A stretch of DNA of 64,000 bases from an uncultured Acidobacteriota bacterium (GTDB lineage Bacteria; Acidobacteriota; Thermoanaerobaculia; Multivoradales; DATKCC01): NCBI GenBank assembly GCA_963843755.1, contig CAWJLS010000002.1, forward strand, positions 385,279 through 449,278, in the 5' to 3' direction. The position numbers and the translations under genes were made by a program. Shown here piece by piece: positions 7,765 through 43,428 of this stretch (the first letter of the stretch is position 1; every line of letters begins with the position of its first letter). A model generated the notes under the pieces. That model worked only from the letters and a program-made list of their open reading frames with translations, was not told the DNA's origin and did not search any database.

Positions 7765-9431
7765 ATGACGCGAACGAAACGCGGTTGGATCTTGGTGATC
7801 TTGCTGGCCGGGCTGCTCCCGGCCCTCTGCTCCGTAGCACGAGCTCAGGACGATCCCGAGCCCGATCAGTCGCGCCCCCGAGGGCGGGCGAAGGGGGTCG
7901 TGCTGGACGACGACGGCGGGCCGCTGGCCGGCGCCACCATCAAGCTGGTGCCGGTCCCCGGACGGGGGGTCGAGCCCGGTCCGGGGGTCGAGGATCCGCG
8001 GTCGGTTCCGCGACCGGTATCCACTGACAAGAAGGGACGCTGGTCGATGGCCTTCCTGGAGCCCGGCGTCTTCTGGATCTCGGTCGAGGCCGAAGGGTTC
8101 CGTCCGGGCCAGGGATGGATCGAGGTGTCGGACGAGGGCCCGGGCGACGCCGTGACCGTGCAGCTCCAGGACCTGGACGTGGTCTCGCCGGAGTACGCCG
8201 AGGGGAACCCGCGGCAGTCGGTCGACGACTGGTTGAAGAAGGGTGACGCCCTGCTGGCTCAGGGGCAACCCGGCCAGGCGCGGGCCGAGTACCAGAAGGT
8301 GCTCGACACCCCGGGAGTGCTCGGCGACGCCGAGCGGGGCCAGGTGCTGGAGACGGTCGCCCGGACCTACTACCTGGAGGGCAACGCCCAGGCGGCGGTG
8401 CGCGCCCTCGAGGCGGCGCTGGTGCTGGCGCCGGACAACCAGCGCACGCGCCAGCTTCTGACCGTCCTGCTGGACGGCCAGGGGCGCAAGGGAGAGGCCG
8501 CGCAAGTTCCTCGACCGGCTGGCGAAGGACCCCGACGGCGTCTCCAAGGAGCTCGCCGACCTGGTCGGAGTGCACGAGGCGGACAAGGGAGAGGCGATCC
8601 CCGACGAGCCGGTGCTCCAGCCGCAGGCCGACCGGGTGGGGCGCTACCGGGTCGCGTTCACCGGCCACGCGCCGCTCGGCGACGTCGAGACGTTCATCGA
8701 CCGCTACGGGGCCGACCGGGGGGCGCTCGAGGCGTCCGACCCGTCGAAGAAGGACGGCGGGGAGGTCGACCTGTCCGCCGAGACCTTCCAGGTCTACGTG
8801 CCGGACGAGTACGCGAGCCAGGCGCGGGGGACGCCGGTGGGGCGTGGGGGCTGGTGGTCTGGGTCAGCCCGGGGCCGTACGGTGCCACCCGCCGCACCGA
8901 CGTCAGCGACGTGCTGCGCAAGCACCACATGCTGTGGGTCGGCGCCAACAACAGCGGCAACGACCGCTTCACCTGGGACCGGGTCGTCCTCGCCCTGGAC
9001 GCGGCCTACAACATGAACGCGCTCTACTCGATCGACCCGAACCGGATCTACGTCGCGGGGTACTCGGGCGGCGGCCGCATGGCCAGCGCCCTGTCGATCC
9101 TCTTCCCCGAGGTATTCCGTGGCAGCCTGATGGCGGTCGGTTGCGACAGCTACGGCCGATCGCGATCCCCGACCGTCCGGGAACCCACTGGCCGCCGTCG
9201 TTCAAGGAGCCTCCGAAGGATCGGCTGGACCGGGCGCGGCGCGACAGCCGCTTCGTCATGCTGACCGGCACCAAGGACTTCAACCGCGCCCAGTGCCGGG
9301 CGATTTACCACGCCATGAAGGACGACGGCTTCAGCCACGTGACCTACCTGGAGGTCCCGGACGGCAGCCACTACATGGGTCTGCTGCCGGAGTGGCTGGA
9401 CAAGGCGCTGACGGCGTTGGACGGGAGTTAG
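7765..9431 (+). pseudogene. exported CarboxypepD_reg - TPR - alpha/beta-hydrolase (esterase) protein, reading frame broken about 3 times
   Basis: Signal peptide MTRTKRGWILVILLAGLLPALCSVARAQ. Ig-like block GVVLDDDGGPLAGATIKLVP...TDKKGRWSMAFLEPGVFWISVEAEGF. A TPR region follows. Esterase part: GLVVWVSPG..., nucleophile elbow YVAGYSGGGRMA, ...EVPDGSHYMG. Homology jumps between ORFs 7765..9264, 8570..9016 and 8844..9431 near 8500, 8822-8847 and 9153-9156. Confidence 0.7.
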
Positions 9432-9573
9432 GTATCGTCGGCAAGGCGGCGCGGTGCCGTCGCTCCGTCGGGAGCCCGTGCCGTACCTGATGGAAGAAGG
9501 GCTTCGAAGGTCTGTGTTGAGTCCCGTGTGGAGAGTGCTGTGAAGAGGGTCCGGCCGGCCCGGCCGTGTCCAG

Positions 9574-11724
9574 GTGCGGGCCGCCGTCTGCGGTGTCGTG
9601 GCGCTCGCCCTGCTGGCCGGGTGCGGCGGGCCGTCTGGCCCGTCCGGGCCGGCGGCGAGGAGGTCCCCGCGGCGACCTCGAAGGGCGCTTCCACGTCCTC
9701 CGGCGGCCGCGGGGGCAGCGCCCAGAACGTCGTCCTGATCACGGTCGACACCCTCCGGGCCGACGCCCTCGGCTTCGCCGGCAACCAGAAGGTGTCGACG
9801 CCGGCCCTCGACCGGCTGGCCGCCGCGGGCCGGGTGTTCACCGACGCCCATGCCCAGAACGTGGTCACCCTGCCTTCCCACACCAACATCCTGACCGGCC
9901 TCTACCCCTACCAGCACGGGGTGCGCAACAACGGCGGCTTCACGCTGCGGGCCGGACGTGCCGACCCTGGCGACGGTGCTCCACCGAGCCGGTTTCGCCA
10001 CCGCCGCGTTCGTCGCCGCGTTCGTCCTCGATTCGCGCTACGGCCTCGACCGCGGGCTTCGACGTCTACGACGACGACCTGGGGGGCGCGGTCGAAGGGC
10101 AGGGCGAGCACCTGTTCACCTACCCCGAGCGGTCGGGCGACGAGGTGGTGGAGCGGGCCCGCCGCTGGTGGCAGGAGAACCAGGGCCACCGCCGCTTCGT
10201 CTGGCTGCACCTGTTCGAGCCCCACGCGCCCTACACGCCGCCCGCGGCCTTCGCCGGCGACGGGTCGGAGCCCTATCTGGGCGAGGTCTCGGCGGTCGAC
10301 TCCTATCTCGCGCCGCTGCTCGACGAGCTCCTCTCCGGACGCGAGCCGCCCACCCTGGTGGTCTTCACCGCCGACCACGGCGAGGCGCTCGGCGAGCACG
10401 GCGAGCTGACCCATAGCTTCTTCGCCTACGAGCCGACCCTGAAGGTGCCGCTGGTGCTGTGGGGCCCCGGGGTCGAGCCCGGGCGCGACGGCCGGGCGGC
10501 CCAGCACGTCGACATCATGCCCACGGCGCTCGGCCTGCTGGGGGTCGACCCGCCCGCGGACCTGCCGGGGCGGTCGCTCGTCGGGGCGCCGCCGGACCCG
10601 TCGCGCGTCTCCTACTTCGAGTCGCTCTCGCCGAACCTGGAGTACGGCGCCGCTCCGCTGCGCGGGGTGATCGGCCACGGGATGAAGCTGATCGAGCTGC
10701 CGATCCCCGAGCTCTACGACCTGAAGGCGGACCCCGGGGAGACCCACAACCTCATCCACGAACGGCGGCGGGAGGCCCGGGAGCTGGCCGCGGCGCTGCC
10801 CGAAGAGTCCCAGTGGCCGCCCGAGGCCGGAGACGATCGCGCCGGAGGAGGCGGAGAAGCTCAGGAGCCTCGGCTACCTGGGGGGGCTCGACCGGTAGAG
10901 GGGCCGCGAAGAAGGCCTCCTACGGCCCGGAGGACGATCCGAAGAACCTGATCGGCCTCGACCGCAAGCTCAACTCGATGGTCCAGCTCTACACCGCGGG
11001 GCGCTACGACCGGGCGGTCGCGCTGGGGCGTGAGATCGTCGCGGCCCGGCCGACGATGACGGTCGCCTACGAGTACCTCACGCGCATCCTGCTCGAGCGC
11101 AACGACAACGCGGCGGTGCTCGATCTGCTCGAGGCGGCGCGGCGTGCCGGGGCCGCCAACGGGGCGCTGCTCCAGCAGCTCGGGCTGAGCCTGGTGCGCG
11201 CCGGACGGCCCGCGGAGGCGGTGAAGGTGCTCGAGACGCTCGACCCGGACGCGTCCGGCGCGGATACCCTGAACGGCCTCGGCCTGGCATACTCGGCCCT
11301 CGGACGCTACGACGACGCGGCCGCCGTGCTCGAGCGGGCGGCGGCGGCCCGGCCGGACGACCCGCGGCCGCTCGAGACCCTGTCGTTCGTGGCCATCCAG
11401 CGGCAGCGCTATGCGGAGGCCCGCGACTACGCCCGCCGGGCGTTGAAGATCGAAGGGCGGCGGCCCGATGCCTGGAACAACCTGGGGATCGCCTACTACA
11501 ACCTCGGCGACGCCAAGACCGCGGTGGAGGCCTGGAAGCGGGCCGCGACGCTCGACCCGGGCAACCTCGACGTGCTGTTCAACCTGGGCACGGTGGCGGC
11601 CCGGATCGGCGATGCCGGCACCGCCCGCAAGGCGCTCGGCGCCTTCCTGGCGGCCGCGCCGGCCTCCGGCTACGCCGACGAGCGGCGCCAGGCGCAGAGG
11701 ATCCTCGACGGTGGCGCATCCTAG
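9574..11724 (+). pseudogene. AP-superfamily sulfatase-like hydrolase fused to TPR, lipoprotein (paralogue 1), frame broken about 5 times
   Basis: GTG 9574 gives MRAAVCGVVALALLAGC (lipobox). Then NVVLITVDTLRADALGF...VVTLPSHTNILTGLYPYQHGVRNNG...FVWLHLFEPHAPY...FTADHGEALGEHGE..., with TPR to the stop at 11724. Homology hops across four track ORFs (9528, 9958, 9566, 10459) and an unlisted frame. The breaks are near 9640-9652, 9948-9955, 10054-10056 (GGG), 10826-10830 and 10880-10886 (G7). Confidence 0.75.
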
Positions 11725-13492: not shown

Positions 13493-15444
13493 GGAGGCTC
13501 TTCCCACTTCCCGGGCTGCACGCGGCGGCCCGGGCCGTGCTCGCCGCGCTGCAGGCCGCCCTCCTGGCGGCCCTGGTTCTGCCCACGCCGCCCGCATGGG
13601 GCGCGCCGTCCGCCGCGCAGCAGCCTCCCGGACAAGCTCCCGGAGTCGCCTCCGGGGACGCTCCGTCCGCCCCATCGGCGGAAGCCGGGACCGACCTCGC
13701 GCCGCCGCGCCCGGACCTGGTCGCGGTGCCGGCGCCGCCGATCGCAAACCTGGAGCCGGGAGACCAGGAGCAGCTCAGCGACGAGCGGGCGGCCGTGGCC
13801 GAGCTGATCGCCGACAGGAGCGCCTCCGACGCGAAGCTGGCGGCGGCCTACGGACGGCTGGGCAGCCTCTATCTCCTCTACGACCTGTCGGAGGCCGCCG
13901 AACCGGCGCTGATCGATGCTCGCACCCTGCAGCCCGACGAGCTCGCCTGGCCGTACTACCTGGGCGTGCTCTACCAGCGCGACGGGCGCCTGACCGAGGC
14001 CGAGGCGAGCCTCGCCAGGGCCCACGACCTGAAGCCGGACGACCTACCGACCATGATCCGCCTGGGGCAGGTGCGGCTCGCCGCGGGCGACCTCGACGGC
14101 GCGCAGACGATCTTCTCGACGGTCTACGAGCGCGAGCCGCGCTCCGCGGCGGCCCTCGAAGGGCTGGGAACGATCGACGTCCGCCAGAAGCGCCCCCAGC
14201 AGGCGATCGAACGCTTCCAGCGGGCGCTCGAGCTCCAGCCGGGGGCTGACATTCTCCATCACCAGCTCGGGCTCGCCTACCGCGACCTGGGAGACCTGGA
14301 CAAGGCCAAGGAGCACCTCGCCCTGAACAAGGGCGGCCGCGTCCGCTTCTTCGACCCGCTGATGGACGGCCTGACCGGTCTGCTCCGCGGGGCCTCGATC
14401 CACCTGAAGCGCGGCAACAACGCTCTCAAGGACGGGCTGGTGGATGTGGCGATCCGGGAGTACCGCCAGGCCGTCGCGATCGACCCGAAGGACCCCAAGA
14501 ACCAGTACAACTTGGGCTTCGCGCTGGTCAAGGCGGGGCAGCGCGACGAGGCGATCGGCTACTTCGAGAAGGCGATCGAGCTCGACCCGGGGTACCGCGA
14601 CGCTCACTACAACCTGGCCGCCGCGCTGGCCGAAGAGGACCGGTGGGATGAGGCCGTCGGGCACTACGCCAAGGCGGTCGAGATCGATCCCCTCGACCAC
14701 GCCGCCCACCTGGAGTGGGCCCAGGCGCTGCTCCGGGTCGGCAAGAGCGATCGCGCGGCCGAGGAGCTCGAGGCGTTGCTCGGCCAGCTCCACGGCGACG
14801 AGGTGAAGCTCGCCGGCCAGGTGCACCTCGAGCTCGCCCGCCTCCGGCAGAAGGCCGGTGACGAGGAGGGCGCGCTGGACCACTTCCGGAAAGCCGCGTC
14901 GAGCCTGCCCGACTCCCGCGCCGCCCACGAGGAGCTGGCGAAGCTGCTGGGCCGGAGCGGTCAGTTCGGCGAGGCGGCGGGGCAGCTCGACCGGGTGGTG
15001 GAGCTCGCGCCCCGGGAGGTCGACCCGCGGTTCGGCCGGGCCATGGCCCTGATCCTGGGCGGCGAGTACCGGCGCGCCCGCGAGAACCTGGAGGCCGATC
15101 TCGACGTGCTGCCCGGCAACCCGGTCCTCTCCGACCTGCTGGCCCGGCTGCTGGCGACGGCACCCGACCCGGCTGCCCGCGACGGCGCCCGGGCGGTCGC
15201 CATGGCCGAGGCGGCCTTCCGCCGCCAGGCCAACCTGGAGCGGGCGGAGACGGTAGGCATGGCCTATGCTGAGGCGGGACGGTTCGACGACGCGGTCACC
15301 TGGCAGCGGCGGGTGCTCGGCCAGGTGGAGCCCAAGGGGCGGCCCGAGGTGATCGCGCGCAACCGGCGGTACCTGGCGCTCTACGAGGAGGGGAAGCCGG
15401 TGCGGAGCCCCTGGAGCCCGCCGCGAGGAGGAGACGCGAAATGA
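13489..15444 (+). CDS. exported TPR-repeat protein
   Basis: ATG 13489 (ATGA overlap with the upstream stop), in frame with ORF 12400..15444. Hydrophobic N-terminus LAALQAALLAALVLP. About 12 TPR-like units (e.g. AWPYYLGVLYQRDGRLTEAEASLARAHDLKPDD, YNLGFALVKAGQRDEAIGYFEKAIELDPGY). Confidence 0.8.
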   Translation: MRRLFPLPGLHAAARAVLAALQAALLAALVLPTPPAWGAPSAAQQPPGQAPGVASGDAPSAPSAEAGTDLAPPRPDLVAVPAPPIANLEPGDQEQLSDERAAVAELIADRSASDAKLAAAYGRLGSLYLLYDLSEAAEPALIDARTLQPDELAWPYYLGVLYQRDGRLTEAEASLARAHDLKPDDLPTMIRLGQVRLAAGDLDGAQTIFSTVYEREPRSAAALEGLGTIDVRQKRPQQAIERFQRALELQPGADILHHQLGLAYRDLGDLDKAKEHLALNKGGRVRFFDPLMDGLTGLLRGASIHLKRGNNALKDGLVDVAIREYRQAVAIDPKDPKNQYNLGFALVKAGQRDEAIGYFEKAIELDPGYRDAHYNLAAALAEEDRWDEAVGHYAKAVEIDPLDHAAHLEWAQALLRVGKSDRAAEELEALLGQLHGDEVKLAGQVHLELARLRQKAGDEEGALDHFRKAASSLPDSRAAHEELAKLLGRSGQFGEAAGQLDRVVELAPREVDPRFGRAMALILGGEYRRARENLEADLDVLPGNPVLSDLLARLLATAPDPAARDGARAVAMAEAAFRRQANLERAETVGMAYAEAGRFDDAVTWQRRVLGQVEPKGRPEVIARNRRYLALYEEGKPVRSPWSPPRGGDAK

Positions 15445-17140
15445 CGCGATGGAGGAGACGGCGTGGTGGGGCCGCTCGCCGAGAGTGGACCCGCGCCCTG
15501 GTGCTGAGCGGCCTGCTGGTCTCGGGAGCGCTCTGGGCGGCGGCACCGGCCCGCGGAGCCCAGATCCGCTTCAAGGAGGTCTCGAAGGACTGGGGGCTCG
15601 CCTTCCGCCACCACCACGGTGGCAGCGGCGAGCTCTACATGGTCGAGACCATGGGCTCCGGCGTCGCCGTCTTCGACTACGACGGCGACGGCGACGACGA
15701 CGTCTTCTTCGTCGACAGCGGAACGCTTCCGGGATACCACGGAGAGGAGCCGCACTCGGCCCTGTTCCGCAACGACGGCGGGCACTTCGTCGACGTCACC
15801 CGCGCGGCGGGGGTCAAGATCAAGGTCTACGGCCAGGGCGCGGTCGCCGCCGACGTCGACGGGGACGGCGAGCTCGACCTCTACGTCACCGGCTTCGGGC
15901 CGAACCAGCTTTTCCACAACCGGGGCGACGGCACCTTCGAGGAGGTGCCCGACGCCGGCGGCGCCGCGGACCCGGGCGTCGGGGCGTCGGCCAGCTTCGC
16001 CGACGTCGACGGCGACGGCGACCTGGACCTCTACAGCGCCAACTACGTCGATTTCGACCTCGACCACAACGTCGTCTGCGGCAACAAGGAGCGGGGCATC
16101 CGGACCTACTGCCATCCGGACGCCTACGACGGCATGGCGGACCACTTCTACCGCAACCAGGGCGACGGCACGTTCGTCGAGGACACCGCCGCGGCCGGCC
16201 TCGAGGCCACCATGTCCGACGGGCCCGGGAAGGGGCTGGGGGTGCTGTGGACCGACATCGACGATGACGGCTGGCCGGACCTCTACGTGGCCAACGACAT
16301 GACTGAGAACCTGCTGTTCCGCAACCGCGGCGACGGCACGTTCGAGGAGCTGGGCATGCTCGCGGGCACGGCCTTCAGCGACCGCGGCGATCCGGAGGCG
16401 AGCATGGGGGTGGACGCCGGCGACCTGGACGGCGACGGCATGCCCGAGATCATGCTGACCCACATCGACGGCCAGACCAACGCCGTCTACAGCTACAAGG
16501 GGTCGTGGATCTTCACCGACAGCCGCTACACAGTGCGCCTGGCGGAGCCGTCGGTGGGCAAGGTCGGCTTCGGCGTGCTGTTCGCCGACTTCGACCAGGA
16601 CGCCGACCTCGACGTGGCAGTGGCCAACGGCCACATCATCGACAACATCGACCTGTTCGACAAGACGACCACCTACAAGCAGCCGCAACCAGGTGTTCGA
16701 GAACCTCGGCAACGGGCGGTTCTCGGAAGACGAGCACTCCGGCCTCGACGTGATCCGCGCCAGCCGCGGCTCGGCGGTCGGCGACCTCGACCTCGACGGC
16801 GACCTCGACCTGCTGATCAACAACTCGAACGACTGGTGCGAGGTCTACGAGAACGTGACCCCGAACGCCGGCGCCTGGCTCCAGGTCGACCTGGTGCAGG
16901 ACCGCGGCAACCGGTGGGCGATCGGCGGGCGGGTGACGGTCGACGCCGAAGGGCTCGCGCTCCCAGTGGCGCGAGGTGCGGACCGGCTCGTCCTACCTCT
17001 CCCAGAGCGCGTCGACGCTGCACTTCGGGCTGGGCGCGGCCAAGAGGGTCGACCGGCTGCTCGCCCGCTGGCCGGGCGGTGAGCAGCGGATCGTCGAAGG
17101 CCTCGGCACCCGCGTCCGCGTGCGTCTGTTCAAGAACTGA
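15441..17140 (+). pseudogene. CRTAC1-type FG-GAP/ASPIC protein (paralogue 2), frame broken twice
   Basis: ATGA overlap start at 15441. WGLAFRHHHGGSGELYMVETMGSGVAVFDYDGDGD... and FG-GAP units. Homology moves to ORF 16693..17082 near 16683-16690. It moves to a third frame near 16955-16964 (QWREVRTGSSYLSQSASTLHFGLG...RWPGGEQ...LFKN, stop 17138-17140). Confidence 0.75.
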
Positions 17141-19171
17141 TCCGGGCCAGCGTCTGCCGGGCCATGCGGTTGCCCGGCTGCACCTCGAGCAGGTGCTCGA
17201 GCAGCGGCCGCGCCTCGTCCTTGCGCCCCTCGCTCAGCAGCAGCACCGCCAGGTCGTTGAGGGCCGCCGGGTGGTCGGGGGCCAGCTCCAGCGCCTTCCT
17301 CAGGTGCTGCTCGGCCGTCTCGAGGTTCTTCTGTCCCCATGGCGATCGCCCCGGCCTGGTACTGGACGTCCGGGTTGTCGGGCAGGGCGCGGAGCAGCGC
17401 GTCGGACTCCTTCTGCCGCCTCGTCGAGCCGGTGGCCGAACAGCAGGGCGCGGACCTTGAGCAGTCGAAGCCGCGGCTTGTCCGGGGACTCGTCGATCGC
17501 GGCGTCGAGGTAGAGCAGGCCGTCGTCCAGGTCGCCGAGCTCCAGGGCGAGCTGGGCCATCGGCTGGGCGAGCCCGGGCGCGCCGTTCGACAGGTCGAAG
17601 GCCTTCTTGTACGCATCGAGCGCGTTGCGGCGCTGGCCGAGGTTCTGGAGCGTCAGGCCGAGGAACTGCCAGGCGTCCATCGACTTCGGGATCTGCGCGG
17701 TCGCCTGGCGCAGCCGGGGGAGGGCCTCCTGGTAGTCGCCGCGCTGGACGATCTCGATCGCCACCCGCAGGTTCTCGAGCGCCGCCAGCTCGTCCTTCGG
17801 GTTGACCGAGGTGTCCTCGGAGCCGGCCGTCCCGCCCAGGTAGCCGAGCGAGGTCAACGCCTCCCGGGTCTCCGAGCTCTCCTCGAACGGCTTTTCGAAG
17901 TGGGGCTCGATCGCCTCGATCGCGTCGCGCATCCGGGCATAGACGCGGCGCTCCCGGCGGATCCGGTCGGTCCTCTCCGCCGGGTCCTGCTCGACGTCGT
18001 AGAGCTCGGAGCGGGGGCTCTGGATGTAGTGGTAGTGGCCGTCGATCAGCGACCGGAGCTCACTCCAGCCGAAGCGTATCCGCGGGTGGTAGGTCTCGCT
18101 GTAGATCGCGCGGGGCGCGGTCAGCGACTCGACGTCGAGCAGCGACATGCCGTCGAGCCGCTCGGGGGCGGGCGCCCCGGCGATGGCGAGCAGCGTCGGC
18201 ATGACGTCGGCCAGCCCGACGGGGGCCGCCACACTGGTGCCGGCACGGCGCCGGCCGGGCAGCTTGAGGATCAGCGGCACCTGGATCGCCTCGCGGTAGA
18301 GCAGCACGCCGTGCTCGTCCTCGCCGTGGTCGCCGAGCCCCTCGCCGTGGTCCGAGAGCAGGACGATGGTCGAGTCGTCGTAGAGGCCCCGCTGCCTGGA
18401 GCGCCTTCACCAGGTCGCCGACGATCTGGTCGCTCTCCGCGATCTCGCCGTCGTACGGGGAGGCGTAGCGGGAGGCGAACGGCTCGGGCGGATCGTACGG
18501 CGCGTGGGGCTCGTAGATGTGGAAGAAGAGGAAGAACGGCCGGTCGGCGTCCCGGCCCGGGCGGTCGTCGAGCCAGGCGAGCGCCGCCTTCAGGGTGGCC
18601 GGGCCGGGGCGCTGGATCTGGGCGATGGTGGCGCGCCGGGAGTCCGCCTGGAAGTCGTCGTCGTAGGTGTCGAAGCCGCGGGAGATGCCGGTCTGGTGGC
18701 GCAGCACGAAGGCGGAGACCGCCCCGCCGGTGGCGTAGCCGGCCTGCTCCAGGACCTCGGCCAGGGTCGGCGGCCCGTCCGCGGCCAGGCGGTAGCCGGC
18801 GTTGTCGCGCACGCCGTGGTCGGGCGGCAGCAGGCCGGTGAAGAGCGAGGTGTGGGACGGCAGGGTCAGCGGCACCGGGCTGTAGGCGTGCTCGAACAGG
18901 ATGCCGTCGGCGCGCAGGGCGTCGATCGCCGGCGTCTCGGCCGCCGCCTCGCCGTAGACGTCGAGGTGGTCGGAGCGCAGGGTGTCGATCGAGATCAGGA
19001 CGATCGGCCGGCCGGCCGGGATCGCTCCGCTCCGGAGCCGGCGCTGCAGCCGAGGAAGGCGGTGAGGGCGACCGACGTAGCCAGGGCGGCCAGGGCGGCC
19101 ACAGCGGCCAGGGCTCTCGGGACAGGGAGGGCGGCGAGGCCGCTGACGACGGGGCGGAAGGCGCGGCTCAT
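17130..19171 (-). pseudogene. AP-superfamily sulfatase-like hydrolase fused to TPR, lipoprotein (paralogue 2), frame broken about 4 times
   Basis: ATG 19171 gives MSRAFRPVVSGLAALPVPRALAAVAALAALATSVALTAFLGC (lipobox). RPIVLISIDTLRSDHL...VPLTLPSHTSLFTGLLPPDHGVRDN...FFLFFHIYEPHAPYDPP...SDHGEGLGDHGEDEHGVLLYREA... then TPR. Breaks near 19005-19020, 18384-18395, 17405-17415 and 17328-17338. The stop at 17132-17130 overlaps the convergent gene end by 11 nt. Confidence 0.75.
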
Positions 19172-19272: not shown

Positions 19273-20897
19273 CTACGGTGTCTCCCGGGCCGCGGACGTC
19301 CCGTCCTCCGGCGGCCGGTCGGGCCCCCGGTACCCCTCGCACAGGAACAGGCGGAACCGGCGCACGAGTCTTGCCCCGGTGGCGGATCTCGATCGGCGGC
19401 AGCTCCCGCACCGAGGCGAAGTACTGGCGCACCTGGCCGAGGTAGCGCTCGGTCTTGCTCGTTGGGCCGGAGCTTCGGACTGGGTGCGGACGAACAGGGC
19501 GTCGCGGCCGGCGAGGCGTCCGCGGGTCCTCGCCGATGTACTCGAGCTCGAGGGCGTTCCAGCCGATCACGTTCATGCCGTAGACCTCGAGGTCCGAGTA
19601 GAACCGGAGCTCGGCGGTGGTCTTGTAGTTGTCGGCCGAGAAGACGAAGAGCTCGGGGTGGCTGCCGGCGAGGGCGTCGGCCCGGGCCTCGACGTCGCGG
19701 GCCAGCTCCTGCCAGCCGAACCAGGTGTCGTCGGAGTGGACCGGCACCGGGTAGAGGACGAGCTGGACCGCCAGCAGCAGGTGGAGCAGCACGGCGCTCA
19801 CCAGGTGCCAGCGCACGGCCCGGCGGCCGATCTCCAGGGCGACCAGGAGGGTGGCGGCCACGTAGGCCGGCATCGGCCAGTTCGCCTTGACCCAGGTGAG
19901 CGTCGACAGGGCGATGCAGGTGGCGAAGACCGGCACCGAGAAGGCGAGCAGGAACAGCCGCGTGGTGCGCTCGGGCGGCGCGCCGAGGCGTTCGAGGCGG
20001 AGCGGGCTCCGCGCCGCCCGCCAGAGGTCGCGGCCGGCGATCCACAGGAAGAGGCCGAGCGGGATCGGCAGGAAGACCACCGCCTGGCTGGCGAGAAAGC
20101 CGAGGGTCTCGCCCGGGTCGATGCCGCGCACCGTCTTCGGCGCGTCCGACCGACTGGAAGAGGAACGAGACCCAGCCGTGGCGGGCGTTCCAGACGTAGA
20201 CCGGCAGGGCGACGACGTGGGTCGCGACCAGGGCGAGCCACGGTCCGGGCGTGCGCAGCAGCCGCCGGTGGTCCGGCGAGCAGAGGAGGAAGAGGATCAG
20301 CCCGCCCTGGAGGAAGACGGCGGTGTACTTGCTGAGCAGCGCCAGCCCCATGAGCGCCCCGACCAGCAGCCAGGGGCCCCAGGCGCTCCACGCACTCGAA
20401 GGGAGCGCGTTCGGCTGCATCGGCTGCATCGGCTGCCGATGCAGCAGCAGCCGGGCGAGGGCCCACAGCGCGAGGGTCCAGAACAGCAGCAGCGGCACGT
20501 CGGGGACCGCGATCCACGACAGCAGGGTGACGACCAGGGTGGTCGAGAAGACCGCCAGGGCGGAGAGCTGGCGCGGATCGGCCGGGCCCGCAGAGTCGGC
20601 CGGGTGGGCGGCGCGGCTGGGCAGGAGCTGCCGTGCCAGGCCGAAGAACGCGAGCTGGGTGGCCAGAGTCGTGGTGAACGTGGCCAGGCGCACCGCGAGC
20701 GTGCTCTTGCCGAGCAGGGTGATCCAGGGCCAGAGCAGCCACCCGATCATCGGCGGGTGGTCGAAGTAGGAGAGCGCCGGGTGCTGGGCGTAGATCGAGT
20801 AGTACGCGCTCTGGGGCATCAGGTCGAACGCCCCCAGGAGCGCCGCCCGCAGCAGCGAGGCCGCGGCGAAGACGAGGAACGCGGTCCGGGGTTTCAG
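19273..20897 (-). pseudogene. GT39 (ArnT/PMT_2-like) membrane glycosyltransferase, frame broken 2-4 times, no canonical start codon
   Basis: FDLMPQSAYYSIYAQHPALSYFDHPPMIGWLLW... plus multiple TM segments in the frame of ORF 18060..21692. It continues in ORF 19184..20131 after about 20145-20155. Further shifts lie near 19518-19522, 19462-19472 and 19366-19374, with the stop at 19275-19273. The first codon after the GT2 stop is CTG (CTGA junction at 20897-20894). Confidence 0.65.
20412..20444. repeat. 9-bp direct repeat x2 plus a 21-bp perfect palindrome inside the decayed GT39 gene
   Basis: cggctgcat at 20412-20420 and 20421-20429. Palindrome ctgcatcggc-t-gccgatgcag at 20424-20444. Encodes ...QPMQPMQP... 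on the minus strand. Confidence 0.85.
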
Positions 20898-21692
20898 GGC
20901 TCGGACGAGTCGGCGCCGGCCAGCAGGTGCCGCTCGCCCGGCTCGGGGGCCGGACGCGGCAGCAGGCGGAGGCGCAGCAGGTGGTAGGCGGCCTTGAACA
21001 CTTCGGTCGCCGAGATCTTCGACCGCCCCCCCTCGCGGTCGCAGAAGACGATCGGCACCTCGGCGATGGAGAGCGCCAGCCGGTCGGCGAGGAAGGCGAT
21101 CTCCTCGAGGAACGAGTAGCCGGAGCTGCGGATCGAGGCGAGCGGCAGCCGGGCCAGCGTGCTCGCCCGGTAGACCCGGAAGCCGGAGGTCACGTCGCGC
21201 ACCGGCAGGCGGAGCACCGTGCGCGCCAGCAGGTTGGCGTTGCGCGACAGCAGCCGGCGGTGGAGGCCCCAGTTCTCGATCCCGCCGCCGTCGACGTAGC
21301 GTGAGCCGATGACCAGGTCGGCGTTCTCGACGGCCGCCAGCAGCGCCGGCAGGTGGGCCGGATCGTGGCTCAGGTCGGCGTCCATGGTGACGATCGGGTC
21401 GAACCCGCCGTCGAGCCCGGCCGCGAAGCCGGCGAGGTAGGCGGTGCCCAGGCCGAGCTTGGCCGGCCGGGGCAGCAGGCGGATGCGTTCGTCGTCGCGC
21501 GCCGAGGGAGCGGACCCGCTCGGCGGTGCCGTCGGGCGAGGCGTCGTCGACGAACAGGACCGTGGCGCCGGGGGCGTGCTCCAGGATGCGGCGCGCGAGA
21601 GGGCCGACGTTGTCGGCCTCGTCGAAGGTGGGGACGACGATCAGCGGGCGTCTCTCGGGGTCGGGACGTCGCGAGGCGGGTGCGATGACCAC
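20894..21692 (-). pseudogene. GT2 polyprenol-phosphate glycosyltransferase (Dpm1/Ppm1-like), one frame break
   Basis: GTG 21692: MVIAPASRRPDPERRPLIVVPTFDEADNVGPL...VLFVDDASPDGTAERVRSL. After about 21495-21506 it continues as ARDDERIRLLPRPAKLGLGTAYLAGF...TMDADLSHDPAHLP...GSRYV...SGFRVYR (ORF 20894..21385). Confidence 0.75.
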
Positions 21693-21706
21693 CGGGTGAG
21701 GGTAGC

Positions 21707-23697: not shown

Positions 23698-25364
23698 CTA
23701 CGACTTGGAGCTCTTCTCCAGGCGGTCCAGGTTCGCCTTCGCCTGCGGATCGTCCGGCCGGATCTCCAGGACCTTCTTCGAGCAGGGTCCGGGCTTCGTC
23801 CTTCTCTCCCTTGACCAGCAGCACCACCGCCAGGTCGTTGAGCGCCGGCACGTGGTCGGGCGCGAGCTCGATGGCGTGGCGCAGGGCGGCCTCGGCGGCG
23901 CCGAAGTCCTTCTGCGCCATCTTGACCGTGCCCAACTGGTAGACCGCGTTCGGGTCGTTCGGCGCCAGCGCCAGGGCCTTCTGGGCCTGGTCGAGCGCTT
24001 CGTCGGGGCGCCCCAGGATGAGCAGCGCCCGGGAGGCCAGCAACCGGGGGCGGAGGTCGTTCGGTGCCAGCTCGATCTCCCCCTCCATCAGCTTGAGCGC
24101 CTCCTCGGTCTGCCCCTGGGCGAGCATTGCCCGCGCGCGGTCGACCTTCGCCCCCGTCGGATCGTCCCGCGCCTCGCGGATGCGGTTGATGCGGTCGGTC
24201 TCGTTGCCCTCCGCCTTGGCCACCTCCTGGAACTTCTGGAGCGCCTCTCGCGCCTCGTCGCGCTTGCCGGTCGCCGCCAGGGCCTGGCCGTAGGCCTGCC
24301 AGGCCTCCTTGTCGCGGGGGTGCACCTGGGTGGCCAGGTGCAGGTAGGGCACGGCGTCGGCAGGCCGGCCGGCGGCCAGGAGCCAACGGCCGAAGTCCTG
24401 GACGATGTCGGACGGCGACCGGCCAGCGCGGGTTGTTCTCGTCGGGCGAGTGGGCGAGCACCGGCTCGGCGAACGGCTGGAGCGTCTCGATCGCCTTCTG
24501 GACGTCCCCGTTCTGGTAGTAGGCCCGTCCCAGTTGCAGGTGGCCGGCGGGGCCGATGGCGTGGCCCTCGAGGATGCCGATCACCTCCTCCGCCTTGCCG
24601 ATCTGGAGATAGGCGTCGGCCAGGAGGTTGCGGGCGTCGTTGGTCATCTGCGGTGGGATCTCGTCCGACTCGTCGAGCAGGGGGCGCAGCGTCGCCACCG
24701 CGCCCGGCGGATCGTTCTTGAGCAGCAGCAGGTTGCCCCAGGCCAGACGGACCTGGGGGTCGGTCTGGGGCAGATCGGACAGGAGCTCCTCGGCGTCCGG
24801 CGGCCGGTTCAGGCGGATCGCCGCGAAGGCCGCGGCCAGCCGGGCGTCCTTGTCGTCCGGGTGGGTCTTCGCCCAGGGCATCAGCAGGGTCAGCGCCTCG
24901 CGATAGCGGTTCTCCTGGCCGCGGAGGAGCCCGAGCTCCCGGGAGGCGGGCGTTCCCGGCTGGAGCTTGACCGACCGCTCGAAGAACTTCTCGGCCTTGA
25001 GCACCTTGCCGATCTTGAGCGCCGCGCGCCCGGCGTTGTAGAGCACGGCGGCGTTGGCGTCGGGCGCCTCGGCCATCGGCCCCAGCAGGTCGTAGGCATC
25101 GCCGAGGCGGTTCGCCTGGATGTAGAGCACGCCGAGGGTCGCCAGTACCTGGGGCGGGGTGTCGGCGCGGTCCTTGAGCGGTTCGAGCAGCGCGATGCCC
25201 GCCTCCGGGTGGTCGTCGCCGGCGCGGTCGAGGGCCTCCCGCAGGAGGGCCATCGGATCCTGCGCGGACGGTTCAGCCGGCGGCGTCTGCTGGGAGACCG
25301 CGACGGCCGGCGCGCCGAGGCAGAGGGTGAGGAGGAGCGGGAGAGCGAGGGTCGTTCGGTTCAT
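23698..25364 (-). pseudogene. exported TPR-repeat protein, frame broken twice
   Basis: ATG 25364 (ATGA overlap) gives MNRTTLALPLLLTLCLGAPAVAVSQQ, then TPR units. Homology passes from ORF 23472..27578 to ORF 23294..24352 near 24420-24430. It moves to a third frame near 23774-23783 (LLEKVLEIRPDDPQAKANLDRLEKSSKS, stop 23700-23698). Confidence 0.7.
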
Positions 25365-28614: not shown

Positions 28615-28675
28615 TCACAGTGGCTTCGTGCACGGACGGATCTTAGCAGTCCGGGGCTCGCGGCGCGAACCGGCC

Positions 28676-30582
28676 TCAGGCCCCGCCGTCCGCTCCTTTC
28701 GGGCGTTTCGAGCGCCGGGTCCGCACTGGTTCGCGCACCTGGTTCGAGGCGCAGCGATAGCCTCCGTTGTGGATCACGCTGCCCACTAGCGGGGGCAGCA
28801 GATCGAGTCGCGTCCCCATCGCCTGGAACCGCTCGCGGGCGAGGCGGTCGCCGGCGCGGAATCCGGGAGGCGAAGCCTTCGGCCCGCGGCTCGCCGTTCC
28901 GGACGTCGAGCACGACGTTGTTCCAGCCGAGGACGAAGTCCGGGTAGTCGAGCGCGTCCGGTCACCGTCGAGCAGGGCGACCGGGACCAGGAGCAGCGGC
29001 AGGCGCCCGACGGTGAGCCCGGCGCCCTCCAGGTGCTCCGCGATCAGGTCGAGGAAGCCTTCGAGGCCGGTGGCGCGGGCGCCCTTCTGGTAGGCGAGGA
29101 GCCGGGAGGTGAGCTCGCTGCCACCGGCGCCCAGATGGTAGGTCTCGCGGAGCGCCAGCAGGTCCTCGGGGCCGAGGTCCGCGAGCAGCCGCCTGCCGCC
29201 GTCGACGTCGCCGACCAGGGCGCTGAGGCCACCGTCCTTGCCCGGCAGCAGGGTGACGAGGGAGTCGAGGTCGTAGCCGGCGCCGCCGCCGATCCGGGCC
29301 ATAGACCGCGGCACGCTCCGTGGCGGGGCCGCTCTCCGGCAGGGCGTGCACCAGGTGGACCGGCTTGCCGTAGAAGCGCGCCATCTCGTCCATCGCCCGG
29401 TGGGCGGCCGCCAGGTACCGGTCGATCCCGGCGGTGGTACCGAACGTCTCGGACGGCACCCGATCGACCCCCAGATCGCCGAGGATCTGTTGTTCCAGGG
29501 AGTGGAGCGACAGCCACACTACGCCGTCGGCGCTCAGGATCTGCCCGGTGTGGAAGCGGATCGGGGCGGTGCTCCAGACCGGCCGGCCCCAGCGTCGATC
29601 GAGCGCCTCGGGCAGGTTCTGGACGATCTCCCGGGCCATGAAGAAGTCCTCCTCCCGCCCGGCCTGCCGGAACGGCCGGTCGACCAGCTCGAGCCCGCCG
29701 TCGTGCCGGAGCGCGACGTTGAACGGATCGCGCGGCCACGGGGAGTAGGCGCGGCCGTAGGTCTCGAGCAGGGTCAGCCCGAGGTTGCTGGCCGTGGGTT
29801 CGAGACTTCGGGTCATGGGCAGGTCGGTCAGGGCGACGAGCGCGCGCTCCGGAGCCAGGGCGTGGACCGCGGCGAGGAGCCGCCGGGCGTCGTCGGCGTC
29901 GACGTAGTTCGAAGGGCAAGGAGTAGATCGACGCCCGGACCGGGTCGGCGAGGTCGTCCGGGAAGGTCAGCTCCTCCGGGTGCATCGAAGCCTCGCGGGC
30001 GGCGCTCGACCGGGGAGCGGCCGACCAGGCGAGCTCGAGCGCTTCGGACTCGGCGAACGAGAGCCCGCCCACCTCGACGTAGAGGCTGTAGAGGATGCGG
30101 TCGCGGAGGGCGGGTGCCGTGCCGGGCGCCAGGCCGTGGGTGAGCAGGGGGACGACGTGCCGGCGGAAGTCCGGATCGGCGGCGAACCGGTCGGGGTCGC
30201 CGAGCAGCAGGAGGAGCACGCTCCGGGCGTCCGCGGTGGTCCACGGCCCGCCCCGGCGAGTCAGGCGCAGGCAGCGGGCCCGGGAGAGGGCGGTGAGCCG
30301 GTCGGCCGCCGCGTCGCGGGCCCCCGCGTCGGCGCCGGTGAGGCCGGCGAGCAGCGGGGCCAGCGCCTCGGCCCGGAGCTCGGGATGGCGGGCGAGGTGC
30401 TGCTCCAACCCGGCCGGATCGACAGGGCCGGCCGGGCTGGTGGCCCCGACGCCCTCCGCGCTCGTGGCCGGCGGCCCCAGGAGGGCCAGGATCGTCAGAC
30501 CGAAGAGCAGGCCCAGGAGCCTCTGCGCGCCGGCACCTCGGCTCAACGCGCCGTCTCCCGGAGCGCCGGGGCGTTCGGCCAC
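28676..30582 (-). pseudogene. exported protein with agmatine/peptidyl-arginine-deiminase-like (pentein-fold) C-terminal motifs, frame broken about 4 times
   Basis: N-terminal anchor RLLGLLFGLTILALLG. The probable start is TTG 30546 (TTGA overlap), or GTG 30582. Segments YSPWPRDPF, IRFHTGQILSADGVVWLS, GGGAGYDLDSLVTLLPG, LGWNNVVLDVRNGEP, AGDRLARERFQAMG...SVIHNGGYRCASNQV are spread over ORFs 29044..30582, 28962..29816, 28676..29314 and 28611..28913. Breaks near 29905-29912, 29300-29320, 28958-28966 and 28858-28872. Confidence 0.45.
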
Positions 30583-32730
30583 CGGTTCCGGGCCACCTGG
30601 AGCAGGCGCTCGGCCGAGCCCGGGTCGCCCAGGAGCCTCATGGCCTGCGCCGCCTCGGCGTAGGCGGTGGGAGTCTGGTTGGTCTCGACGAGCTGGCGCA
30701 GCACCGCGCCGGCCTGCGGGCCCTGGCCCGAGAGGGCGTAGACCACGGCGAGCCGGGTGTAGGCGGCCAGCTCCGCGGGATAGAGCTCGATCTCGTGGCG
30801 GAAGGCGGCGATCGCCTCCTGGGCCTGACCGAGCTGGGCCAGGGACTCTCCCTGGATGTAGTAGAGACCGCGGATGAACTCCTGATCGTAGCCCTCCTTC
30901 TCGACGTCGGCCTCGACCTCGCGGGTGAGGCCGAGCGCCTTCTGGGGCTCACCCCGCTTGAGCAGGAGCTGGGCCTTCGTGATGCGTACCGACGGCTGCT
31001 CGTTGCCGGCGGCGATCGCCTTCTCGACGTAGTCGGCGGCGCTGGTCGAGGTCGCCCTGGCGGATGGCGATCTGCGCCAGCAGGTCGAACGCCTGGTCGT
31101 ACTCCTTGGACGCCACCAGGGCGAGGCGCTTGGCCTCGTCGAGCCGGCCGAGCCGCACCAGGCAGCCGGCCATGGTCAGCGACGCGTAGGGCGAGCCGCC
31201 GGTGAGCTTCATCTGGTGGTCGAAGGCTTTCAGCGCCTCGCGCGGCCGTCCCAGGCGCAGCAGGCTGTTGCCCATGTACTCCCAGGCGTCGACGAGCTGG
31301 GGCTCCTGGTCGAGGATCTGCTGGTAGACGCCGACAGCCTGCTCGTACTGGCCGGCCTCGGCCAGGTCGAGCGCCTTGCCCAGGAGGTTCAGCACCTCGA
31401 GCTTGGTCTTCGGATCGGCCAGGGACTCCTCGCCCCGGTTGCCGACCGAGCCGACGTAGCCGAGCGCCTCGAGCTGCTTGCGCACCTCCGGGTCCTCGGT
31501 CTGGTCCGGCTCCTGGAACGAGCCGTCATACCTCTCGAGGGCGTCGCGGAGCCCGGCGTAGGTTCGGCGCTGTTCCTGGATGATGTTGTGCTCCTCGCCC
31601 GGGTCCTTCTCCAGGTCGTAGAGCTCGCGGTCCGGCCCCTGGATCAGGTGGTACGGGTACTCGATGACCGAGGTGAGCTCGCTCCAGCCGAAGTGGATGC
31701 GGGGGAACTGGGTCTCGCCGTAGATCGGCCGCTGCTGAGCCTCGTCCAGGGTCAGGAGAGACTGGCCCTCGAGCTCCTCCGGCTGGTCGATGCCGAGCAG
31801 CGAGAGCACGGTCGGCACCAGGTCGGTGAGCTGCGCCGGGGCGTCGCTGGTGGTGCCGCCGCGCTGGTTGCCGGGGAGCTTCACCACCAGCGGGACCTGG
31901 AGGACGTCGCGGTAGAGCAGCGGGCCGTGCTCCTGGAAGCCGTGGTCGCCCAGCCCCTCGCCGTGGTCGGAGACGAAGAAGACGAGCGCCTTGTCGTAGA
32001 CCCCGAGGCGCTCGAGCTCGGCGATCAGCCGGCCGATGAGGTCGTCCGCCGAGGCGATCTCGCCGTCGTAGGCGAGGGTGTAGCGCGAGGCGAACGGCTC
32101 CGGCGGGTCCCAGGGGCGGTGCGGCTCGTAGAGGTGGAAAAAGAGGAAGAACGGGGAGCCCTTGACCGACTCGAGCCACGGCTCCACCGCCGCCAGGGTC
32201 TGGTCCCCCTTGCGCTGGGCGCTGCCCATCTTCCACGTCCGCTGGAGGATGTTGTCGTCGTAGAAGTCGAAGTCCGACGACATGCCGGTGGCGGCGCGCA
32301 GGACGAAGGCGGAGACCGCGGCGCCGGTCTTGTAGCCGTGCTGCTTCAGGATGCGCGGCAGCCACGGGTGGTTGGCGGCGTCCAGGTGATACCCGAGGTT
32401 GCCGCGGACGCCGTGGTCGGCCGGGCGCAGGCCGGTCAGCATGGACGAGTGCGAGGGCAGGGTGAGCGGGACGTGGCTGTAGGCGTGGCGGTAGAGGATT
32501 CCGTCCTGCCGTAGGCGGTCGAGGTGCGGCGTCTCGACCTTCTGGTACCCGTACATGGGCAGATGGTCGGAGCGCAGGGTGTCGACCGAGATCAGGATGA
32601 CGGGGGTGCCGGGAGCGGCGTGGATCTCCGGCGCGGCCCCCTTCTCCTCGCCTCCGCAGGAGGCTCCGAGGATCAGGGTGCCCGCCAGCAGAACCAGGCC
32701 GAGACGGTGGGTCCAGGTCGACGTCTTCAT
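30543..32730 (-). pseudogene. AP-superfamily sulfatase-like hydrolase fused to TPR, lipoprotein (paralogue 3), single frame break
   Basis: ORF 30949..32730: MKTSTWTHRLGLVLLAGTLILGASC (lipobox), VILISVDTLRSDHL, VPLTLPSHSSMLTGLRPADHGVRGN, FFLFFHLYEPHRPWDPP, SDHGEGLGDHG, then TPR. After about 31041-31046 the TPR continues in the frame of ORF 30543..30746 (AADYVEKAIAAGNEQ...YALSGQGPQAG...NAPALRETAR). Confidence 0.8.
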
Positions 32731-39525: not shown

Positions 39526-39554
39526 AGTGTAGCGATACCACGCATGGGGGTCAA
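39526..39554 (-). promoter_or_regulatory. sigma70-like promoter candidate for the receptor operon
   Basis: Minus strand: TTGACC (39554-39549), a 17-nt spacer, then TACACT (39531-39526). This predicts a ~150-nt 5' UTR containing the palindrome ctgcaacgtgcag (about 39397-39409). Confidence 0.4.
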
Positions 39555-41118: not shown

Positions 41119-41209
41119 GTATGGCGGCACCGCCCCTCCGGTGCGAAGCAGACCTGATGTCCCGGGGGCCGATTCCGGCCCACGGCGCTCGATCCCTGGA
41201 GGTGTTCCG

Positions 41210-43428
41210 ATGACCCCCCCGTCCCCCCCACTCCGGCGTCTCCTCCCCTCCCTGCTTTCGACGGCGGTCGCCTGCGCGGTCCTCGTCGCCGCGGCGCAGC
41301 CGAGCGCGGCGCCCGCGCAGGTCTACGAAGGCACCGCCAACGTGGTCGAGGTCCAGGTCCCGGTCAACGTCACCACGCGCAATGGCGAGCCGGTCCGGGG
41401 CCTGACGGCGGACGACTTCACGGTGCTCGACCGCGGCAAGCCCCAAAAGCTGACCGGCTTCCAGGTCGTCGATCTGGAGACGCTCAGACCGACCGAAGCG
41501 CAGACCCGGTCGGAGCAGGTGGCCGACCTGGTCCCCGCCGTGGCCCGACGGCACTTCTTCCTGCTCTTCGACCTGACCTTCGCCTCGCCGGCTGCGGTCG
41601 TCAAGGCCCGCCGGGCGGCCGAGGACTTCGTGCTCAACGAGCTCCATCCGACCGACCTCGCCGCCGTGGCGACCTTTTCCATGGACGTCGGCCCGCGGCT
41701 GATCGTCACCTTCACTCCGGACCGGGCCCAGCTCGCGCGTGCTATCGACACGCTCGGTGCACCGCGCTTGACCGAAAGCCGGTCGGGGGTGGATCCTCTC
41801 CGCTTCATGATCGTCGATCCCGAGAAAGCGACCATGAGCAGCACGTTCAACCAGGAGACCGGACCGCAGAACTCACTCCGGCCGGGCGACCATGCCCAGG
41901 AGGTCCAGTCCTACCTGAATGTCATCGCCAAGGAGATGGAGAAGTCCGAGAAGAGCTACCAGCGGGGCCGTGTGGCGTCCTGGATGAGCACCCTGGGCGA
42001 CATGGCGCACACGCTGGCCAGCGTCGAGGGGCGCAAGCACGTGGTCCTGTTCTCGGAGGGCTTCGACGGCCGCCTGATGCTCGGTCGCGGGCCGGACCCC
42101 TTCGACCGCAAGGCGAAGCAGGACCAGATGGCGCTCGAGTTCGGTCAGCATTGGATGGTCGATCCGGACGACATCTACGGCAACACGGCGCTCCAGAACC
42201 ACGTCACCCGGATGCTCGATGAGTTCCGCCGCGCGGACTGCACCATCGAGGCGGTCGACATCTCCGGCCTGGGTGACGACACGGCCGAGCAGCGGCGCGC
42301 CCACACCGTGGGCCAGGACGCCCTGTTCTACATGGCCAACGAGACCGGCGGCCGGCTGTTCGAGGACGCCAACGACCTGGGCAAGGAGCTCGACGACATG
42401 CTCGAGCAGCTCGTCGGTCACCTACATCCTGTCGTTCGATCCGGCCGAGCTGAAGCCGGACGGGAGCTACCACCGTCTGCAGGTGGAGCTGAACGGCGAC
42501 GGCCACCGGAGCGACCGACGTCTCCTACCGTTCCGGGTACTACGCGCCGCGTCCGTTCGGCGACCTCGACCCGCTCGAGAAGAGCCTGCTCGCCTCCGAC
42601 GCGATCGCCAGCGCTGCGCCCCGCAAGGACGTCGGGATCGACGTGCTCGCGGCGCCGTTCCGGGCCAGCGGCAAGTCCGCGTACGTCCCCGTGATCATCG
42701 AGATCGACGGCAAGACGCTGCTCGCCGACGACCCCCAGGACCACCTTGCCACGGAGCTCTACGCGTACGCGAGCGACGACCACGGAGAGATGAAGGACTT
42801 CTTCACCCAGGTGGTGACCTTGAACCTCAACGGCCAGGGGCGCGAGGCGATGCGCGGCGGCGGTCTCAAGTACTACGGACACATGGACCTGGCCCCGGGC
42901 AAGTATCTGCTCCGCGTGCTCGTGCGCAACGCGAGCACCGGCCGCACCGGCGTCCAGAGCGTCAAGCTGACCGTCCCCGAGTACCGGCAGGAGCAGCCGG
43001 AGCTGCTGCCGCCGTTCTTCGTCGAGCAACCCGGCCGATGGGTCCTGGTGCGCGAGAAGGCGGCACAGGGCAAGCAGACCGTGGTCTACCCCTTCACCGT
43101 CAACGGCGATCCGTACGTTCCGTCGGCCAAGCCGGTCGTCCGGCCCGGACAGCCTTCGGAGCTGGTCCTGGTCGCGTACAACCTCCAACGGGGTAACCTG
43201 GAGCTGAAAGGAACCGTGGTGACGGAGGACGGACGCGAGCTCGACAACATCGGCGACCTCCAACTGGTCGAGCGTACGCCCACCGGAATCGGCGGCCTGG
43301 ACAAACTCCTCGCACGGTTCCGCGTAGACGATCTGAGAACAGGCAACTACACGCTCAAGGTGGCGCTGAGCCAACGGGGTGCCGGGGGGATCCAGGTCAA
43401 CTCGATCCCGTTCAGCGTGCCAAACTGA
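41210..43428 (+). pseudogene. VWA-domain exported protein (TIGR03436-like), frame broken twice
   Basis: ATG 41210 follows GGAGG. Signal LLPSLLSTAVACAVLVAAAQPSAA. VVEVQVPVNVTTRNGEPVRGLTADDFTVLDRGKPQKLTGFQVVD, then FFLLFDLTFASP...VVLFSEGFDG. Homology moves to ORF 42219..43196 near 42407-42414 and to ORF 42643..43428 near 42503-42512. Confidence 0.75.

Follow-up and report, generated by a model that had tools for sequence, protein, structure and literature searches.

Single-base errors in the consensus of the metagenome-assembled genome (MAG), mostly spurious extra bases, very probably account for the 28 reading-frame breaks that we followed across the window (the whole stretch of 64,000 nucleotides analysed here), rather than mutations in the organism, which almost certainly has the ten affected genes intact. 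We consider this the most likely explanation because independent reads from the same population lack the indels and because the genes show no decay. The original prediction had left two explanations side by side—young pseudogenes among redundant duplicates, or consensus errors. Our results favor the latter and disfavor the former on three grounds: independent contigs, selection, and the indel spectrum.

All 28 frame changes were recovered at their predicted positions by combining a 7-state GC3-periodicity HMM, run on the window (G+C of 71%), with tblastn searches using intact paralogues and orthologues and with Pfam matches (Table 1). The in-gene frame switches called by the HMM (8490, 8840, 9154, 9947, 10058, 10825, 10909, 16687, 16949, 17333, 17416, 18395, ~19050, 19524, 20147, 21497, 23779, 24410, 28959, 29301, 29908, 31035, 42415, and 42515) each fell no more than ~15 nt from a predicted position, and the breaks at 9640-52, 19366-74, 19462-72, and 28858-72 were visible by six-frame translation and tblastn. 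A fifth break in the conserved hypothetical gene, near 28686, is doubtful. Gene identities needed some revision: the genes named AP-TPR do possess the TPR part, but are sulfatases (PF00884) plus TPR, and no Pfam family matched the gene that had been called deiminase-like. Intact paralogues were correctly recognized to the extent that AP-TPR4 (with AP-TPR 1 and AP-TPR 2), CRTAC1-3 (with CRTAC1-2), and VWA2 (with VWA gene 1) align colinearly with their broken counterparts through frame hops, but these copies share only 70-84% DNA identity.

Table 1. Broken genes of the window, their frame breaks, and the reading frames in which homologous protein sequence continues (X1, independent short-read contigs)
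Gene	Coordinates	Strand	Breaks (n)	Breaks covered by X1 (state in X1)	Breaks outside X1 coverage	Frame evidence
CarboxypepD_reg-TPR-esterase	7765..9428	+	3	8502, extra base (absent); 9154, missing base (A added after 9154)	~8840, missing base	HMM frames 0/1/0/2; intact 546-aa orthologue P0121 colinear in frames 1/2/1/3 (tblastn)
Sulfatase-TPR (AP-TPR 1)	9560..11721	+	5	10833 (absent); 10880 (absent)	~9645; 9950; 10055	Frames 3/1/2/(3)/1 in tblastn with AP-TPR4 and 734-aa L001 orthologue; lipoprotein signal peptide and sulfatase N-terminus in different frames
FG-GAP/ASPIC (CRTAC1-2)	15441..17137	+	2	16683 (one base fewer); 16959 (one base fewer)		Frames 3/1/2 vs CRTAC1-3 and vs L003 orthologue
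Sulfatase-TPR (AP-TPR 2)	17133..19150	-	4	17333 (absent); 17416 (absent); 19031 (G added after 19031)	~18395	L003 orthologue in frames -3/-1/-3; AP-TPR4 in -3/-1
PMT_2 (GT39-like) glycosyltransferase	19273..20898	-	4	19369 (absent)	~19467; ~19520; ~20147	HMM and six-frame reading; L003 orthologue in frames -3/-1/-2; PF13231 match
GT2 glycosyltransferase	20897..21700	-	1		~21497 (one X1 contig alignment ends exactly at 21497)	Stitched protein matches PF00535 model positions 2-164 uninterrupted across the 21497 junction
TPR	23700..25368	-	2	24414 (absent)	~23779	HMM switch; C-terminal TPR motif and stop codon carry on in another frame
Conserved hypothetical (deiminase-like)	28621..30526	-	4		~28866; 28959; 29301; 29908	Intact 618-637-aa homologues (<=68% identity) colinear in frames -2/-3/-1/-3/-1
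Sulfatase-TPR (AP-TPR 3)	30546..32730	-	1		~31035	HMM frames 2 then 0; TPR tail carries on in other frame of stitched protein
VWA gene 1	41141..43425	+	2	42410 (one base fewer); 42512 (one base fewer)		VWA2 aligns in frames 2/3/1

The breaks were confined, as had been proposed, to 10 of the ~35 genes in the window, with zero within-gene switches detected by the HMM in any other gene. Their density was accordingly uneven (28 in ~18 kb versus none in ~42 kb), and the number of genes affected was well below that obtained by simulation (mean 18.6, minimum 11 in 200,000 trials; P<5e-6). They formed patches of 0.1 to ~5 kb at 8.5-10.9, 16.7-21.5, 23.8-24.4, 28.9-31.0, and 42.4-42.5 kb, and in adjacent genes they sat side by side across the gene borders (for example, 16959 with 17333, and 19031 with 19369). 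Inside the broken genes, no extra patchiness was detectable and breaks were evenly spread (P ~0.3), such that clustering by gene and clustering by patch are indistinguishable. The broken genes encode exported proteins, are all accessory, and mostly have paralogues. Interleaved genes at 11758-15441 and 25369-28549 were spared.

Independent evidence came from X1, a salt-marsh sequencing run represented by short-read Logan contigs at 2-5x depth, a type of contig from which minor variants are dropped. X1 holds the same population, with many contigs 100% identical to the window, and covers 13 of the 28 breaks. At every one of these 13, X1 showed a frame-restoring 1-nt difference of the sign predicted by the frame change. 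Across ~35 kb of control sequence from intact genes (1-7700, 10.9-16.6 kb, 21.5-23.7 kb, 24.4-28.8 kb, and 31.1-42.4 kb), no indels were found between X1 and the window; the only other real length difference was a 9-nt in-frame tandem-repeat unit in the GT39-like gene (20402-20419), whose copy number differs in X1. At 16683 and 16959, the sole X1 contig covering the site at a likeness of at least 95% has the frame-restoring difference. Three other MAGs encode a 30-nt version of the CRTAC1-2 break site without the extra C, and this was the only version returned from genome contigs, with the window's own 31-nt version not among them; a search of JGI metagenome contigs for the 16683 site, in frameshifted or repaired form, gave no match. 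Orthologous loci were likewise intact in the related metagenome contigs L001 and L003.

SNPs, too, separate the window from the X1 contigs that span the breaks, so these contigs could stem from a sister strain whose genes are intact. On this account, the assembled strain would recently have lost ten exported-protein cassette genes via real indels, producing young pseudogenes, while the sister strain sampled in X1 kept them. The restriction of breaks to accessory genes, mostly with paralogues, and their even spread within those genes are both in keeping with such a loss; nevertheless, we regard it as improbable given how the genes themselves have evolved. Substitutions between the window and X1 fell mainly (39 of 53) on the third base of codons read in the corrected frames, and those in broken genes were 70% synonymous (28 synonymous to 12 nonsynonymous) as opposed to the 26% expected if random (P=7e-9), showing that the broken genes are under purifying selection. 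The relaxed selection that had been suspected was not seen—nonsynonymous change was no higher than in intact genes (10 synonymous to 3 nonsynonymous; Fisher P=0.74). Nor did the 5,900 stitched codons include an internal stop, although ~4-8 would be expected with 5-10 neutral substitutions per indel, and the broken genes had no larger deletions or IS elements despite 1-5 frameshifts per gene. Orthologue alignments were colinear and full length, divergence from the L001 and L003 orthologues was no higher in broken genes than in their intact neighbors, and GC3 in the shifted segments was still 0.94-0.99, again at odds with young pseudogenes.

The indel spectrum also argues against real gene loss. 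Extra bases in the window (+1) explain 22 of the 28 breaks and missing bases (-1) the other 6 (P=0.004), and 7 of the 11 resolved insertions are not copies of a neighboring base. Such an excess of non-duplicative insertions outside repeats is unlike the spectrum usually reported for bacteria, which is of the slippage type and deletion-biased. Were the indels real, they would constitute a recent, non-repeat +1 burst in one Thermoanaerobaculia-like strain that lost ten genes of a cassette (exported sulfatase, ASPIC, TPR, and glycosyltransferase genes) kept intact by a co-occurring strain, a scenario that we rate as highly improbable. If true, it would amount to an unusual burst of gene inactivation and imply either localized frameshift-type mutagenesis or very rapid, selected loss of a surface system, but the evidence points the other way.

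Sequence context bears on a further possibility, namely that the breaks are programmed, through ribosomal frameshifting or through toggling by repeat slippage (phase variation). Only one resolved break lies in a long homopolymer (10880, in G7), nothing specific speaks for recoding, and neither slippery heptamers nor simple repeats were found at the resolved sites. Shifts number up to five per gene and run in both directions, while a single frame suffices for the same proteins in the orthologues and in X1. Judging from these intact single-frame orthologues and the sequence contexts, recoding or phase variation appears effectively refuted, and we assign it a vanishingly small probability. The earlier impression that several breaks fall in G/C runs also proved weak: runs occur only at 10880, 8840 (G5 nearby), and 18395 (C4), below background, and among the 15 breaks outside X1 coverage just two have runs of four or more nearby, versus a background of 30%. 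Break contexts therefore rule out homopolymer errors. Of seven methylation motifs tested, CGATCG lay near 3 of 13 resolved indels (P=0.01 before correction for seven motifs), which we treat as not significant; GATC, CCWGG, and the remaining motifs showed no enrichment.

If the breaks are consensus errors, their patchy distribution calls for a local cause. The redundancy of the broken genes had been offered as an explanation, but we saw no causal link, and confusion of near-identical paralogues during mapping or polishing is ruled out by the divergence of the copies given above. Coverage loss from high G+C content was also ruled out, as the intact stretches at 52-62 kb are equally G+C-rich (0.71-0.74). 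Local strain divergence was a better correlate of the breaks than paralogue redundancy: the density of SNPs between the window and X1 was 3.5x higher in broken than in intact genes, which fits errors in heterogeneous or poorly covered stretches of the MAG. In these patches the population is more polymorphic, and fewer reads or a mixture of haplotypes probably went into the consensus there; the underlying cause would be an error-prone read type together with coverage that was locally insufficient or heterogeneous, or with incomplete polishing. In long-read metagenomes, frameshifts persist at low depth or local population heterogeneity, and insertions dominate PacBio-type raw errors (proovframe preprint, 10.1101/2021.08.23.457338). 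Against consensus errors stand the low depth of X1 and its restriction to 13 of 28 breaks, the SNPs in X1, the spared interleaved genes, and the even spread of breaks.

Alternatively, polishing or other post-processing could have written false indels into a correct assembly, whether through a faulty polishing round or through the use of short reads that came from related strains or species. Broken genes do belong to conserved families (FG-GAP, sulfatase, TPR) to which foreign contigs align at 90-95% likeness and up to 20-28x, and local strain SNP density is elevated; yet the three stretches where this foreign pile-up peaks (11.7-12.9, 22.1-23.3, and 25.6-27.0 kb) contain no breaks. We find this course of events scarcely probable, and it is in any case a variant of the consensus-error explanation with no separate biological reading.

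Taken at face value, the ten genes in this record would receive pseudogene or split-ORF annotations, and studies of the cassette (sulfatase-TPR, ASPIC/FG-GAP, TPR, GT39/GT2, VWA, and conserved hypothetical families) should instead take the frame-corrected proteins. More generally, the analysis offers a workable way of distinguishing errors from pseudogenes in the absence of source reads—independent short-read contigs, the codon positions of SNPs in corrected frames, counts of nonsense codons, and the indel spectrum.

Residual frameshift indels in long-read or low-coverage MAGs are the problem addressed by proovframe (10.1101/2021.08.23.457338) and have been discussed for Nanopore MAGs (PMC9262707). 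The window resembles such cases in that conserved genes are split by single-base indels into pieces in neighboring frames, in that accurate short reads from the same population lack the breaks, and in the probable concentration of the breaks where depth is too low or the population not homogeneous enough; it differs in how strongly patchy the breaks are. Like PacBio-type raw errors, the breaks are rich in insertions. Nanopore errors, on the other hand, are usually linked to homopolymers, a tie that is missing here. Recently niche-restricted bacteria with young pseudogenes, such as Mycobacterium leprae and Salmonella Typhi, provide a second comparison, sharing with the window accessory or surface genes that carry several frameshifts and have intact paralogues or orthologues elsewhere. 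Their pseudogenes also carry nonsense mutations, deletions, IS insertions, and raised dN/dS, whereas the window genes display none of these. Finally, programmed frameshifts, as in prfB, dnaX, and IS3 transposases, share the one-base change of reading frame within a gene but occur at just one defined site per gene (a slippery site or a simple repeat), as do the shifts of phase-variable loci, whereas the window genes have up to five sites each in arbitrary contexts.

At 71% G+C, the window holds long ORFs in many frames, so that ORF lists alone are uninformative—positions 7765-9264, for example, are open in one frame, yet the coding frame shifts three times inside this interval. Frame assignment relied on GC3, plotted by frame and modelled with a 7-state HMM (one non-coding state and three frames per strand); the assignments were sharp, with GC3 values of 0.93-1.00. 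The HMM returned 24 within-gene frame switches, each no more than about 15 nt from a site named in the original prediction, and the other breaks, which lie in short segments, were seen by six-frame translation and tblastn (table). Together with homology, these analyses confirmed the predicted set of about 28 single-base breaks in ten genes: an esterase, three sulfatase/TPR genes (AP-TPR1-3), an FG-GAP/ASPIC gene (CRTAC1-2), GT39, GT2, TPR, VWA1, and a gene labelled 'deiminase-like'. The remaining genes had been described as free of breaks, and the HMM indeed found no within-gene frame change in any of them. Confinement of 28 breaks to 10 of about 35 genes is far from random placement: over 200,000 simulated trials, the breaks hit 18.6 genes on average and at least 11 in each.

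Frame shifts lying in short segments
Gene	Position	Evidence
AP-TPR1	near 9645	lipoprotein signal peptide and sulfatase N-terminus in different frames
GT39, C-terminus	19369, 19467, 19520	six-frame translation/tblastn
TPR, C-terminus	23779	six-frame translation/tblastn
'Deiminase-like' gene	28866	six-frame translation/tblastn

Homology runs across the breaks. The intact same-family copies predicted in the window, AP-TPR4, CRTAC1-3, and VWA2, are colinear with AP-TPR1, AP-TPR2, CRTAC1-2, and VWA1 in alignments that hop between frames, and in the stitched (frame-corrected) GT2 protein the Pfam GT2 domain continues uninterrupted over the junction at 21497. An intact esterase orthologue has 546 aa and 77% identity. 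The 'deiminase-like' label was not borne out—no Pfam family matched 28621-30526, a member of a conserved hypothetical family. Most of its more than 160 intact homologues (about 560-640 aa) carry a Thermoanaerobaculia label, and the best-matching ones (68% identity) align in frames -2/-3/-1/-3/-1.

Orthologues of several broken genes were likewise intact in relatives. L001, a JGI metagenome contig, is syntenic with window positions 1-15441 (pheT-pheS-rplT-thrS-AMP-binding-esterase-sulfatase/TPR-ASPIC-TPR); there, the orthologues of the esterase and AP-TPR1 each occupy one ORF (546 and 734 aa, respectively). Protein identity between window and L001 is 91-93% for housekeeping and 43-81% for cassette genes. 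In L003 (3.07 Mb, from an Acidobacteriota MAG), a contig syntenic with 13.2-20.8 kb of the window and about 76% identical to it in DNA sequence, the CRTAC1-2, AP-TPR2, and GT39 orthologues are single-frame, and the 30-nt sequence around 16683, lacking the extra C, is found exactly in three other MAGs, L003 among them. The TPR orthologue of L003 (252-2107) needs two frames to match the TPR protein that is intact in the window, with the switch at about 1675; sporadic breaks of this kind thus occur in such assemblies.

The only public run containing the sequence was X1, a salt-marsh metagenome (shared fraction of sampled words, 0.14 for 7.7-11.8 kb and 0.34 for 52-61 kb). X1 is represented by short Logan contigs, 150-600 nt long and at 2-5x depth. 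Many of these match the window at 100% identity (for example, 1371-1592, 26581-26914, 29715-29865, 37101-37577, and 40567-40915), indicating that the window's population is present. These contigs cover 13 of the 28 breaks at low depth, with the remaining 15 falling outside them. X1 has one base fewer at 8502, 10833, 10880, 16683, 16959, 17333, 17416, 19369, 24414, 42410, and 42512, and an additional base at both 9154 and 19031; with a gained base taking frame f to f+1 and a lost base taking it to f-1, the sign of the difference fits the frame change in every determinable case. At 16683 and 16959, the sole X1 contig at 95% likeness or more has the one-base difference, the higher depth seen at 90% likeness reflecting partial matches from other organisms, and at 21497 one contig alignment ends precisely at the break.

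Over the intact stretches compared, about 35 kb in all (1-7700, 10.9-16.6, 21.5-23.7, 24.4-28.8, and 31.1-42.4 kb), no indel separated X1 from the window. Two exceptions to the absence of other X1 indels were found. The first, at 20402-20419 in GT39, is a tandem repeat of a 9-nt in-frame unit, TCGGCTGCA, present in two copies in the window and three in the X1 contig. It encodes a QPM repeat within a loop of the GT39-like protein. Here copy number varies naturally between strains and the frame is kept, which is how a natural indel between strains looks in coding DNA. The second lies at 44172 in the intact VWA2, where a G4 run is one G shorter in a single 2x-depth X1 contig; the error or variant here probably belongs to X1, the converse of what is seen in the broken genes.

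The original prediction offered two readings, young pseudogenes among redundant duplicates or gene-specific consensus errors, and substitutions bear on both. Among 53 listed differences between window and X1, 39 fall at third codon positions after frame correction and 38 are synonymous, an excess showing that they are real strain differences filtered by selection rather than random errors. The relaxed selection expected of pseudogenes did not appear: broken genes have 28 synonymous versus 12 nonsynonymous changes (26% of random changes in these codons would be synonymous; P=7e-9), no different from 10 versus 3 in intact genes (P=0.74). Nor did the stitched reading of the ten genes contain any internal stop in 5,900 codons; 2.7% of random single-base changes there create one, and 4-8 nonsense codons would be expected had 5-10 neutral substitutions come with each real indel. 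Identity to L001 orthologues is no lower for broken genes (esterase pieces 60-81%, AP-TPR1 pieces 57-86%) than for intact accessory neighbours (ASPIC 66%, TPR 43%), the housekeeping thrS and AMP-binding gene standing at 91-93%. We therefore consider young pseudogenes improbable and consensus errors very likely, the feature being real in the record but most probably absent from the organism.

Why would errors come in patches? Among the X1 contig pieces listed, broken genes have a SNP density of 1.35% and intact genes one of 0.38% (P=7e-7), and breaks of neighbouring genes adjoin over gene borders (16959/17333 at a convergent gene end, 19031/19369, and 29908/31035). The broken stretches are probably those where the population is locally more heterogeneous, and there the consensus would have been built from fewer or mixed reads, or have escaped polishing; failure of polishing in metagenomes has been linked to low depth and 'localized intra-population heterogeneity' (proovframe preprint, 10.1101/2021.08.23.457338). 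Breaks are evenly spread inside the broken genes, so gene-level and patch-level clustering are not separable, and some stretches rich in SNPs carry no indel (171-563 and 17568-17820, for instance). Short stretches at 171-563, 4326-4389, and 17568-17820 are 2-5% SNP-divergent from X1 and adjoin identical ones, an alternation that suggests a mosaic of strain haplotypes, by recombination or chimeric consensus.

Judged by the frame transitions, the indel spectrum is skewed: 22 breaks act like a +1 and 6 like a -1 change (binomial P=0.004). Among the 11 resolved extra bases, 7 do not duplicate an adjacent base, and the one at 10880 (G7) is alone in lying within a long run; runs of at least 4 occur near only 2 of the 15 unresolved breaks versus 30% of random positions. 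Three of the 13 resolved indels (9154, 10833, and 17333) have a CGATCG no more than 15 nt away (background 3.8%; P=0.01, uncorrected for the 7 motifs tested), a possible sign of base calling disturbed by this motif, or else chance. Spontaneous single-base indels in bacteria arise mainly by slippage in runs and are not known to be biased towards insertions. PacBio-type raw reads are insertion-rich, with 8% insertions versus 3% deletions (10.1101/2021.08.23.457338).
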